Shown: positions 80 to 3,177, counted from the first letter of the stretch. The stretch: DNA of 10,511 nt from Candidatus Pacearchaeota archaeon (GCA_018303825.1 JAGVXK010000006.1:1-10511), one strand, 5' to 3'. Made by a program: numbers and translations. The notes: generated by a model not told the origin, from the sequence alone.

Positions 80-2101
80 ATGAAAAAGAGAGGTATAATG
101 TCAGTTTTACTAGTTTTTGCCTTGATTTTGGTTTTAGCAATGCCTTTAATATCAGCATCTATAACTTTTGATAATCAAACATCAACTATTTACAATTTAG
201 GAGATGATTTTTCAATAACCGCAACCATAAGTCAGTCATCAACAACAAATTCCTTCTTTTCAACGAAGTTATCCTGCCCAAGCAATTCCAATGATGTTGA
301 AATCTTTCGAGCCCCATATAAAATACTTTCAGGTGAACAAAAAACACTGACAATAGAAGCAAAATTAGAGCAATCTTTGATAAGCAATCTAAAAGGTCAG
401 TGCATAATCAAGGGAGAATATTCTACTGACGTTGCAACTTCAAATCCCTTCGAGATAACAAATGAAGTAATTATCAGTTCAAACGTGAATGTAACAGAAT
501 TCAATCCCGGAGAAACAATAAGCATTGATGGGACAGCCATAAAGAAAAATAATGCTCCCTTAGAAGGATTTGTTCATGTAGCCCTTTCTGAACTGGGAAT
601 AGATATTGAACAGCCAGTCGCTTCAGGGGAATTTGCTATTACTTTTGATATCCCAAAGAATGCAAAAGCCAAATCATATATTTTAGGCTTGGAAGTCTAT
701 GAAAAAGATGAATTCAATGAAACAACCAATTCAGGAAGCTCATCCCTGACTTTTAATATAAATCAGATAGCAACTGAATTAGAGATAGCAACAAATCTAC
801 AGCAAATAAAGCCGGGGCAGGAATTAACTTATTCCATATCACTAGCAGACCAGTCCGGAGAAAATATCCCTGATAAAGATATCACTTTGATAATAACTAA
901 ACCAGACAAATCGATTGCAGAATCAAAGATATTGAAGTCAGGCGAGTCTGGCTCTTTTGCAACACAAGCTGATTCTACTGCAGGAATTTGGACATTAGAT
1001 GTTACCATAGAAAACTTAACTTCTCAGAGATTATTTGCAATAGAAGAACTTGCAAGCGCATCTTTCTCTTTAGTTAATGATACATTGTACATTCAAAACA
1101 ATGGAAATGTTCCATACAGGAAGACAATTGACATTCTGATAGGGGAAAATAAAACTCTTAAGCAGGATTTGGATATTCCTTTAGCTGGAGTCGCCCAGTT
1201 CAAACTCTCTGCTCCAGAAGGAGAGTATGAAATAAAAGTTAACACTGGAGAAACAACAGAATCACTGGGGAAAGCATATTTAACAGGAAGGGCAATAGAT
1301 GCTCAAAGTTTGAAGGAGATAGCAGGAAGCAGGTATGCAATAGGATTCTGGATTGCTTTGATTCTTGTTCTTGCCTGGATTGTCTTCAGATATTACAGAA
1401 AGACAAGAAGTCCAGCATATAAAGGAAGTTCCCCTGCAAGTTTTGCCTCTCCAATAAAGGTCTCTTCCAATGTTCCTTCAACTCAACCAACATCAGGTTC
1501 ATCAGGCAAATCAACTTCGCCAAATGCAGTCATTGCATCATCAATAAATCAAGGTGATAAGCAGGATTGTTTGGTTATTGCATTGAAGATCAGAAATTTA
1601 GAAACAATAAAAGAATCAAAATCAAATGCAATGGAATCAATCTCCCTTGCATTGGCAAAAGCCCGTGAATTGAAAGCTTCAGTTTATGAGCAGAACGAAT
1701 TCAGAATAATGGTAATTCCTAAATCAACTGCAAAGGAAGAGCTGGCATTAACAGGGGCAAAGCTAGTAAAGAGCATTGACTCTCTGCTAACCGAACATAA
1801 TAAGAAATATACTCAAAAGATAAGTTATGGAATTGGAGCTAATATAGGGGAGTTAATTGTTGAAAGAATCCAAGGCAAGTTCAAGTTCAGCCAAATAGGA
1901 AATACGATACAAACGGCAAGAAAGATTGCAGAGATTGCGAAGGAAGAAGCTCTTATCTCTGAAAAAATAAGAAATCAGGCGATGAAAGACATTAAAGTTG
2001 AAAGAAAAGGTGACTATTGGACCATTTCAATGATAAAAGACCATTCAGCTCATAGCGAATTCATTAACCGATTTATGAACAGGAACAAGCTTTCCGGATA
2101 G
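80..2101 (+). CDS. Single-pass membrane protein with Ig-like ectodomain and C-terminal adenylate/guanylate cyclase-like (class III) domain, likely catalytically degenerate
   Basis: 673-aa ORF. Signal peptide MKKRGIMSVLLVFALILVLAMPLISA; about 390 aa of beta-rich ectodomain; TM YAIGFWIALILVLAWIVF (about 1334-1387) followed by RYYRK; Ser/Pro linker. C-terminal motifs YGIGANIGEL (from 1826) and GNTIQTARKI...ALISE (from 1898) align by eye to cyclase motifs GIGIHTGEV and GDTVNLASRL...ILISE. Confidence 0.8.
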   Translation: MKKRGIMSVLLVFALILVLAMPLISASITFDNQTSTIYNLGDDFSITATISQSSTTNSFFSTKLSCPSNSNDVEIFRAPYKILSGEQKTLTIEAKLEQSLISNLKGQCIIKGEYSTDVATSNPFEITNEVIISSNVNVTEFNPGETISIDGTAIKKNNAPLEGFVHVALSELGIDIEQPVASGEFAITFDIPKNAKAKSYILGLEVYEKDEFNETTNSGSSSLTFNINQIATELEIATNLQQIKPGQELTYSISLADQSGENIPDKDITLIITKPDKSIAESKILKSGESGSFATQADSTAGIWTLDVTIENLTSQRLFAIEELASASFSLVNDTLYIQNNGNVPYRKTIDILIGENKTLKQDLDIPLAGVAQFKLSAPEGEYEIKVNTGETTESLGKAYLTGRAIDAQSLKEIAGSRYAIGFWIALILVLAWIVFRYYRKTRSPAYKGSSPASFASPIKVSSNVPSTQPTSGSSGKSTSPNAVIASSINQGDKQDCLVIALKIRNLETIKESKSNAMESISLALAKARELKASVYEQNEFRIMVIPKSTAKEELALTGAKLVKSIDSLLTEHNKKYTQKISYGIGANIGELIVERIQGKFKFSQIGNTIQTARKIAEIAKEEALISEKIRNQAMKDIKVERKGDYWTISMIKDHSAHSEFINRFMNRNKLSG

Positions 2102-2314: not shown

Positions 2315-2689
2315 TTATAACTTTCTCAGATTATCTTGATCTAAGAAATATGCGTCTCGTCCCGCAATATGTCCAACTATGCCTTTAATCATCCTGCCTA
2401 TTTCTTCCATAGCATTTCTGGGAAGTCCAAGCTCTCTTGCTTTTGACAATGCATAAGCCTTTAGGCATTGAGGGCAGCATATCTTTTCATTATTTTCCAA
2501 TTCCACGACGGCATTTCTCTCACTAAAAGACTCTATTTCAGATATTAAATCATCAGGAATGATGGCTCCTTTCAACAGAGCGTCCATCTTTTTGTCAAGA
2601 AGATAGCTTCTGAAACCCTGTCTTACTACATCAAACGAGAGTTCAAGTGCCTGAGAATCTTTTTGTATTGTCATGTTGAAGAAGTGCAA
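2315..2689 (-). CDS. Hypothetical protein with CCPQC motif (119-124 aa; start either TTG 2689 or ATG 2674)
   Basis: Helical, protein-like ORF with no competing ORF. In-frame TAA at 2704-2702 bounds it upstream. CxxC suggests metal or redox chemistry. No family recognised. Confidence 0.7.
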   Translation of the reverse strand: MHFFNMTIQKDSQALELSFDVVRQGFRSYLLDKKMDALLKGAIIPDDLISEIESFSERNAVVELENNEKICCPQCLKAYALSKARELGLPRNAMEEIGRMIKGIVGHIAGRDAYFLDQDNLRKL

Positions 2690-2802
2690 GATCCAGGAGG
2701 TTTATCCTGTTATTACTTGCAATAAATCGGAGAAGTAAAGACGCAACTGGCTAACTTAATTGTTCTTTTCATTCCATGATTAACCCAGCCACGCTGTTCC
2801 AT
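2685..2802 (-). promoter_or_regulatory. Structured 5' leader with two hairpins upstream of the 124-aa gene
   Basis: Hairpin 1: 2796-2779 (CAGC-G-UGGCUGGGUUAAU) pairs with 2760-2744 (AUUAAGUUAGCCAGUUG), 16 pairs including 3 G-U, one G-G mismatch, one bulge. Hairpin 2: UGCAAG (2721-2716)/CUUGCA (2690-2685) enclosing CAGGA/UCCUG with a 6-nt loop. Paired by hand, not by a folding program. Confidence 0.5.
2713..2802 (-). CDS. Candidate 29-aa leader peptide / small protein MEQRGWVNHGMKRTIKLASCVFTSPIYCK
   Basis: ATG at 2802 lies 21 nt after TATA box TATATAAA (2831-2824), matching the spacing of the genes at 80 and 2947. Ends in tandem TAA TAA. Below the ORF-track length cut-off. Confidence 0.45.
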   Translation of the reverse strand: MEQRGWVNHGMKRTIKLASCVFTSPIYCK

Positions 2803-2823
2803 AAAAAATTCAGGCTCTTTGGG

Positions 2824-2831
2824 TTTATATA
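2824..2831 (-). promoter_or_regulatory. Archaeal TATA box (TATATAAA) of the leftward transcript
   Basis: Minus strand reads CATAAAA-TATATAAA, a BRE-like A-run followed by TATA; predicted TSS near 2802. Confidence 0.6.
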
Positions 2832-2860
2832 TTTTATGCAAGATTTGGCTATGCGTAAAA

Positions 2861-2946: not shown

Positions 2947-3177
2947 ATGGCTTGGAAGACATATCTTGTAATGTATTTTGGCACAAAGGAAGTTGGCGTA
3001 GCGGAAATTGCAAGAAGAGTCGAAGACCTGGGATTCAAAACCACATTCGGAAGTGTTGATTTTGAATATATTTGGAACAAACAGCCGACAAAAGAGGAAG
3101 TTTTTTCTCTGGGAGATAAATTGGTAAAAGCCTTGAAAGATACTGGTGCTGTTTTCAATCTTGACACCCATGACTAA
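2947..3177 (+). CDS. Small hypothetical protein, predicted ferredoxin-like (beta-alpha-beta-beta-alpha-beta) fold
   Basis: 76 aa with a well-spaced promoter. Alternating strand/helix pattern: TYLVMYF / VAEIARRVEDLG / FKTT / VDFEYIW / KEEVFSLGDKLVKALK / AVFNLDT. Resembles small uncharacterised archaeal proteins as I recall them. Confidence 0.8.
   Translation: MAWKTYLVMYFGTKEVGVAEIARRVEDLGFKTTFGSVDFEYIWNKQPTKEEVFSLGDKLVKALKDTGAVFNLDTHD

Follow-up and report, generated by a model that had tools for sequence, protein, structure and literature searches.

The window, by which we mean the whole stretch of DNA that was analysed (10,511 nt), belongs to an archaeal genome of 806 kb with 34.9% G+C; relatives of the locus lie in MAGs named Woesearchaeota, Nanoarchaeota and Pacearchaeota. 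On the minus strand, a gene for a 119-aa protein is preceded by a leader element of ~130 nt, found in at least 36 loci, which carries a short upstream ORF and two predicted hairpins. From upstream to downstream, the features are:

2824-2842, minus strand: promoter, with the TATA octamer TATATAAA at 2831-2824, preceded by the BRE-position stretch CTTGCATAAAA at 2842-2832 (direct reading)
2713-2802, minus strand: putative leaderless upstream ORF of 29 codons plus TAA, MEQRGWVNHGMKRTIKLASCVFTSPIYCK (direct reading; equivalent in 36 of 43 loci)
2739-2800, minus strand: predicted hairpin 1, pairing the mRNA 5' end, from the G of the AUG, with small-ORF codons 18-21 (RNAfold)
2723-2745, minus strand: U-rich linker between the hairpins, mostly single-stranded, with the conserved TGCGTCTTTACTTCT at 2745-2731 (comparison)
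2685-2721, minus strand: predicted hairpin 2, with an outer stem of TGCAAG (2721-2716) and CTTGCA (2690-2685), an inner stem of 2709-2705 and 2698-2694, and the small-ORF stop TAA (2715-2713) in the internal loop (RNAfold)
2675-2684, minus strand: spacer of 10 nt from the base of hairpin 2 to the main start, with neither a Shine-Dalgarno motif nor an ATG (direct reading)
2315-2674, minus strand: main gene, encoding the 119-aa protein from ATG 2674 (homolog alignment)

The start of the main gene differs from the one first proposed. The first-pass annotation had a candidate TTG start at 2689, which would have put the start codon inside the 3' arm of hairpin 2; we reject this start, because in database entries and homologs the protein starts at the position matching ATG 2674, mostly with M-[TIV]-[LI]-K-K. 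This ATG lies ~10 nt beyond the arm. Only in some loci does a TTG within the 3' arm share the frame of the main ORF. The product has the invariant residues N54, C67, C70, G101 and H102 and the motifs CCxxCLKA[HY] and GH[ND]GYY[LM]D. No Pfam match was found for it, nor any PDB sequence match below E 0.09 or usable match in the ESM Atlas; its AlphaFold2 model (pLDDT 86) gave Foldseek E values >0.9 and a best VIA Z of 5.7, below the noise level stated for that tool. Small stand-alone relatives form 352 clusters at 50% identity, defining a family of small CxxC...GH proteins, and no fused forms occur among the best 150 of the 352 clusters, whose members measure 71-168 aa. The gene is present in 59 of the 401 genomes of its order, all from one family, with two or three paralogs in some genomes (G378, G206, G164, G387, G394, G406).

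Convergent and tail-to-tail with the main gene lies a gene for a 673-aa membrane protein (80-2101, plus strand) with an MG2 domain and a C-terminal cyclase-like part. This arrangement recurs in at least 30 loci (L002, L004-L009, L011, L012, L015, L019-L027, L029-L031, L033-L036, L038-L040, L043 and L044; phmmer E 1e-17 to 1e-177). The two genes are a conserved pair, probably with linked functions, and the family of small proteins is tightly linked to this receptor-like membrane protein gene.

The promoter of the small ORF has the spacing of a leaderless gene. As had been noticed at the outset, the end of TATATAAA lies 21 nt before ATG 2802 on the minus strand, and direct reading finds the same 21 nt between TTTAAATA and TTTATAAA and the starts of the genes at 80 and 2947, respectively. 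A genome-wide count after TATATAAA/TATTTAAA gave 36 ATGs at offset 21 versus ~7 at other offsets, and 20 of the 36 open ORFs of at least 60 aa. Offset 21 is therefore the leaderless spacing of this organism, and ATG 2802 sits on it. From this we infer that the first base of the mRNA is the A of ATG 2802 or lies one or two bases from it. None of the RNA runs searched carried this DNA.

Some further elements lie around this promoter. CTTGCA, the hexamer of the hairpin 2 3' arm, also abuts the TATA box on its upstream side, at the BRE position (2832-2842, minus strand), in the window and in its two closest relatives, L005 and L006; elsewhere GCAAG or CGAAAG is found. A near-perfect palindrome (2861-2885, core AATATCG-A-CGATATT) lies between the divergent TATA boxes of the small ORF and of a leaderless 76-aa gene (2947-3177, plus strand); in a non-systematic look it was not seen upstream in L004-L006. 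The 76-aa gene is conserved only beside the closest relatives L004 and L006, and is therefore outside the conserved module.

We collected 43 distinct loci that encode homologs of the 119-aa protein. In 36 of them, spread over at least 10 genera of one DPANN family together with metagenome contigs, the leader follows the same plan: a strict TATA octamer, at exactly 21 nt in 34 of the 36, and then an ATG opening an ORF of 25-37 codons. The 29-codon ORF first reported from ATG 2802 exists in the window (2802-2713), and the suggested inspection of homologous upstream regions found an equivalent in 36/43 loci. No pair of small ORFs exceeds 84% identity in DNA. Conservation of the architecture across these sequences goes far beyond what chance would give. 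L010, a further locus, is interrupted by a contig end and retains the end of the small ORF and the hairpin. In its own genome the leader is single-copy. Among the 401 genomes, the pattern GCAAGTAA-N14-34-CTTGCA had 89 matches versus ~9 for a reversed control; as 1 of the 12 matches sampled was a true leader, located before a homolog, the pattern was judged too loose for mapping the distribution of the leader.

Loci that depart from the plan fall into two kinds: (i) In four distinct loci without the small ORF (L014/L028, L016, L042 and L045), the main ATG follows a TATA-like octamer at 17-21 nt, a distance that marks the main gene itself as leaderless there. (ii) L026 (1380-1455, genome G299) is a natural variant in which the promoter is kept and the small ORF and both hairpins are absent; its 5'-terminal codon is ATT, with 45 nt in frame into the main ATG. 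With L026 as the exception, ribosomes seem, throughout the family, to reach the main gene from a 5'-terminal AUG in every case, whether directly or by way of the small ORF.

The reading frame of the small ORF is under constraint. The frame set by the ATG is open in 36/36 loci, versus 0/36 and 1/36 for the +1 and +2 frames, and the ORF spans hold no stops in frame versus 87 and 118 off-frame (~1040 codons each). Comparison of the loci supports the original view of the small ORF as leaderless, and shows that it is maintained by selection. Its peptide is barely conserved: pairwise identity is 0.28-0.30 versus 0.24 for shuffled peptides, the main proteins of the same locus pairs are 30-50% identical, and differences at codon positions 1, 2 and 3 number 59, 56 and 72 in DNA-aligned pairs. 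An open frame combined with weak peptide identity and near-equal codon-position differences suggests that the frame, not the product, is conserved, with selection seeming to act on ribosomes that travel in frame to the stop. Internal ATGs have a related bias, with 50 in frame versus 12 and 12 out of frame where ~21 are expected per frame (an excess of ~6 sd and deficits of ~1.9 sd each); an in-frame internal ATG occurs in 33 of the 36 loci, mostly at codons 9-13, and is codon 11 (2772-2770) in the window. The excess could, however, reflect a conserved Trp-Met peptide motif. The stop is TAA in 35/36 small ORFs, versus 66% of the long ORFs of the genome and 50% of the main ORFs at the same loci. 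Fusion, frameshift or bypass joining the small and main ORFs is out, as their frame relation is 0, 1 or 2 depending on the locus.

A maintained ORF might instead have a functional micro-protein as its product, such as a partner with Cys residues for the CxxC protein, in a two-gene operon, with the hairpins merely setting mRNA stability or product ratio. Such a product would agree with the recurring C-terminal motif [TS]-C-[VL]-F-[IT]-S and with a Cys content of 6.1% in the small-ORF peptides versus 1.2% in the proteome. It would also agree with a closely related strain variant, a low-depth contig from a freshwater metagenome, whose last 20 small-ORF codons have two changes, both synonymous. 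Peptide identity hardly above the shuffled level and nearly equal differences among codon positions are not what a selected product would lead one to expect, and the RNA structure, described next, adds to these difficulties.

In the window, both hairpins stand out locally and not over the stretch that holds them. Hairpin 2 folds at -13.0 kcal/mol (z -3.86, RNAfold), and hairpin 1 gives -16.0 kcal/mol when folded as the sense strand (z -2.74) and -9.3 as the antisense (z -1.70); the earlier remark that its G-U pairs form only on the minus strand holds. The entire 172-nt stretch is no stabler than its shuffles (z -0.35), which for this one sequence is an outcome that the first-pass annotation had named as refuting. 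Averaged over the 36 loci, however, z is -1.66 when the whole leader is folded and -2.5 when the hairpin 2 region is (20 of 36 loci below -2), and the sense strand folds better than the antisense in 25/36 loci (p 0.005).

RNAalifold found no consensus structure on the MAFFT alignments A2 and A4, because the variable inner stems are not aligned, and alignment-free tests of cognate versus non-cognate duplexes were used in its place. The two halves of hairpin 1 pair at -14.1 kcal/mol when cognate and at -10.5 when not, and those of hairpin 2 at -11.2 and -7.2; in either case 0/5000 permutations were as low, although the loci are related and permutation and rank tests therefore overstate independence. 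That TGC AAG, the last two codons of the small ORF, is the 5' arm of hairpin 2 and CTTGCA (2690-2685) its 3' arm can be read directly, as the first-pass annotation did. This outer-stem sequence, TTGCAAG/CTTGCAA, is conserved, and in a sequence-only MAFFT alignment double-sided changes occur in 6/6 pairs, with 1/500 shuffles as good; examples are TGCGAG/CTCGCA, TTCAA/TTGAA and TGCAG/CTGCA. The inner stem is wholly different between loci, with pairing retained. Between the stop and the main ATG, the freshwater variant has 8 substitutions and 4 indels; when it is rebuilt from the difference table, hairpin 2 still forms (-11.3 kcal/mol, z -3.2). The comparisons indicate that both hairpins are real RNA structures with partner-specific complementarity.

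In hairpin 1, the 5' end, most often beginning at nt 1-4, pairs with the distal ORF. For 99 leaderless control genes from this genome, the pairing probability of nt 1-12 is 0.39; in the leaders, these 5' nt reach 0.64. An internal AUG left open in the loop of hairpin 1 was also considered and is not general (pairing probability 0.56 versus 0.59 ORF-wide).

For a micro-protein, these structures are awkward. The conserved segments of the peptide are the RNA pairing partners, the synonymous sites of the motif are fixed too, and where the penultimate Cys codon is replaced by one for Phe, Ser, Val or Leu, the 3' arm changes to compensate. A micro-protein would moreover leave the position of the stop in the hairpin base and an ATG-free gap before the main start, described below, unexplained. 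We consider it unlikely that the peptide is what is selected.

The same codons bear on whether cysteine is sensed. Two Cys codons in the window peptide (C20 and C28) had prompted speculation about a Cys, metal or redox signal, and a specific mechanism can be envisioned in which scarce charged tRNA-Cys would cause a stall, at Cys codons within or close to the hairpin 2 5' arm, that holds hairpin 2 open and yields more CxxC protein, for which there is experimental precedent in mycobacteria (bioRxiv 10.1101/834739). At least one Cys is found in 35/36 peptides and at least two in 23/36, and ~20/36 have a Cys codon among the last two positions, within the hairpin 2 5' arm. Adjacent Cys codons, the hallmark of the class, occur however in only 2/36 peptides (L008 and L011). 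The off-frames of the same DNA would give 4.5% and 2.6% Cys, TGC triplets arise largely from the TTGCA stem motif, and the Cys codon is lost whenever the stem covaries. Nor did Pfam and fold searches give the target protein a known link to cysteine metabolism. The evidence for the signal is thus weak, and a Cys-sensing attenuator appears highly improbable.

Attenuation of a more general kind fares no better. The alternative pairings S2:S3 and S1:S4 have mean z of -0.39 and -0.07, no better than shuffles, versus -1.75 and -1.17 for the native S3:S4 and S1:S2, which leaves the attenuation switch of the original proposal unsupported, since a true one would need mutually exclusive pairings, as in trp-type attenuators. 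Two other features of the trp type are absent: there is no T run after hairpin 2 on the sense strand and no conserved codon run. A scan of the whole window on both strands against Rfam gave 0 matches at E <= 1, in keeping with the earlier statement that no known riboswitch was recognised here.

The linker between the hairpins is conserved at the nucleotide level. Its motif TG[CT]GTNTTTA[CT]TTCT (core TTTAYTTCT) occurs in the window (2731-2745, minus strand) and in L004, L007, L009, L018, L020, L021, L032, L041 and L046. The synonymous sites of the motif do not vary among the 10 loci that have it in strict form (TCT in 10/10, ATT in 6/6 and TTT in 10/10), where genome usage of these codons is 28%, 41% and 66%. 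Such fixation implies nucleotide-level constraint and points to an RNA-level or DNA-level role for the linker, beyond every model considered here. An internal promoter within the leader was rejected: ATG 2674 has no TATA-like box at the leaderless spacing, and the conserved TTTACTTC of the linker would be a poor TATA, 56 nt upstream of the main start.

Perhaps the hairpins and linker form a protein-binding site to which the small ORF is secondary, bound by the 119-aa product (autoregulation) or by an Sm-like or other RNA-binding protein. Conservation of linker and outer stem would suit a binding site, as would the second CTTGCA that the window, L005 and L006 have immediately before the TATA box, and the fact that the leader was seen only with this gene family, in its own genome and among the 12 sampled pattern matches in relatives. 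The predicted model of the 119-aa protein, however, matches no known nucleic-acid-binding fold, and a binding site does not account for frame maintenance, the in-frame ATG bias or the fixed stop. Taken by itself we think this quite improbable, though a bound protein is compatible with the translational coupling proposed below, as a source of signal, and is only partly its rival.

The region between the two ORFs has a regular layout. Stop and main ATG are 38 nt apart in the window and 32-54 nt apart across the 36 loci. This gap is without ATG in 35/36, where shuffles predict 15.3 ± 2.9 loci with an ATG, and the sole exception is an ATG in frame with the main ORF. In the minimum-free-energy (MFE) folds with a clear hairpin 2, the hairpin has the small-ORF stop at or in its 5' base, and ~7-17 nt, mostly 8-14, separate its 3' base from the main AUG. 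No SD-like 5-mer precedes the main start in any of the 36 loci, and a 4-mer does so in 5/36; the lack of GGAG before either candidate start, already remarked upon, is borne out. Among the non-leaderless genes of this genome, 32% have Shine-Dalgarno 4-mers and 12% have 5-mers, and since the motifs are rare genome-wide, their absence at the main start is weakly diagnostic. Predicted pairing around the main AUG is middling, at 0.40-0.58.

We propose that the element is a cis-acting translational leader, in which ribosomes load at the 5'-terminal AUG and termination within hairpin 2 is coupled to initiation at the main AUG; we give this reading a probability of roughly one half. Transcription from the strong BRE/TATA promoter would start at about the A of ATG 2802, giving a leaderless mRNA whose 5'-terminal AUG receives the ribosome. 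Hairpin 1, by tying the 5' end to the distal small ORF, would limit or gate this loading. Structure at the 5' end is known to inhibit leaderless initiation in bacteria (PMC8459731). Ribosomes that do start would translate all 29 codons, opening hairpin 1 on the way until they meet hairpin 2, and one terminating at the TAA would hold hairpin 2 open ~38 nt from the main AUG. Once re-formed, hairpin 2 would have its base ~10 nt from this AUG, which would be the next AUG on the RNA and lacks a Shine-Dalgarno sequence. The main AUG could then be reached by either of two routes: a post-termination ribosome or small subunit may move on to it, or the transient unfolding of hairpin 2 may let a new ribosome bind. 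RNA unfolding and ribosome scanning are both established proposals for translational coupling (PMC12548453). The effect of small-ORF translation on the main gene would be enabling, not repressing, and any signal would presumably act on hairpin 1.

Several observations sit uneasily with this coupling. The idea that a terminating ribosome melts hairpin 2 beside a start without a Shine-Dalgarno sequence goes back to the first-pass annotation; it fits the stop position and the frame, but the start lies outside the arm, and as hairpin 2 does not include the main AUG, occlusion of the start is an assumption. The gap of 32-54 nt is also long by the standard of Haloferax volcanii, where termination-reinitiation needs a stop/start overlap or a very short gap (Huber et al. 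2019, 2023, as cited in PMC7531240 and PMC12548453). L026, for its part, has a leader without a small ORF. A broader form of the proposal, which we put forward tentatively and regard as rather unlikely, is that in these DPANN archaea the 5' end serves as the ribosome entry site for the downstream gene: ribosomes would load through a leaderless mini-ORF, terminate within a hairpin and then cross, over or along, ~35-40 nt of AUG-free RNA to the next AUG. If true, hairpin 1 would be a gate for some signal.

Control by upstream ORFs and leader peptides is well documented for both bacteria and eukaryotes. In the literature searched, we found no description of a conserved cis-regulatory upstream ORF in archaea, and a review of archaeal translation initiation mentions uORFs only via reference to eukaryotic work. 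The leader looks like a compact, comparatively well-supported candidate for a translation-driven control element, with frame maintenance, the frame-dependent ATG bias, the ATG-free gap, the position of the stop and the two covarying hairpins as independent signatures in the sequences. It raises the testable question of how an internal start without a Shine-Dalgarno sequence is reached in an archaeon that relies on leaderless mRNAs, which bears on the origin of 5'-end-dependent initiation and reinitiation.

The closest tested precedent is the mycobacterial class of polycysteine leaderless sORF attenuators (Canestrari et al., bioRxiv 10.1101/834739). Common to both are a leaderless short ORF as the first cistron (its start placed here by TATA spacing) and, in our proposal, a need for base-pairing in the leader and a ribosome position that decides downstream translation. 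The mycobacterial elements are bacterial, their consecutive Cys codons sense tRNA-Cys, and their duplex hides the Shine-Dalgarno of cysteine-metabolism genes; the present element is archaeal, with no Cys run, no Shine-Dalgarno to hide and a target of unassigned function, and it is the stop codon, not a stall site, that is fixed relative to the hairpin. In RNA-unfolding coupling, as in phage MS2 coat-lysis/replicase and f1 genes VII-IX (PMC12548453), the upstream ORF likewise enters a hairpin before the downstream start, and its translation opens that hairpin. The phage cases, however, involve full-length upstream genes and a downstream Shine-Dalgarno, whereas here a dedicated leaderless frame of 25-37 codons has a product that is barely conserved. 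Coupling in Haloferax volcanii, in the accounts cited above, is likewise archaeal, and a terminating ribosome is proposed there to start the next ORF at the next AUG; those pairs often have a Shine-Dalgarno, whereas the gap of 32-54 nt here is filled by a hairpin.

In layout only, with the stop at the base of hairpin 2 and the main AUG ~8-14 nt beyond it, the leader resembles sORF-dependent shunting. In the pararetrovirus shunt of the CaMV 35S RNA, a 5'-proximal short ORF ends at the base of a stable stem and initiation resumes just 3' of it; that process is eukaryotic and cap-dependent, with scanning 40S subunits and a much larger stem. If true, entry at the 5' end via a mini-ORF would give prokaryotes an equivalent of uORF reinitiation or shunting in eukaryotes.
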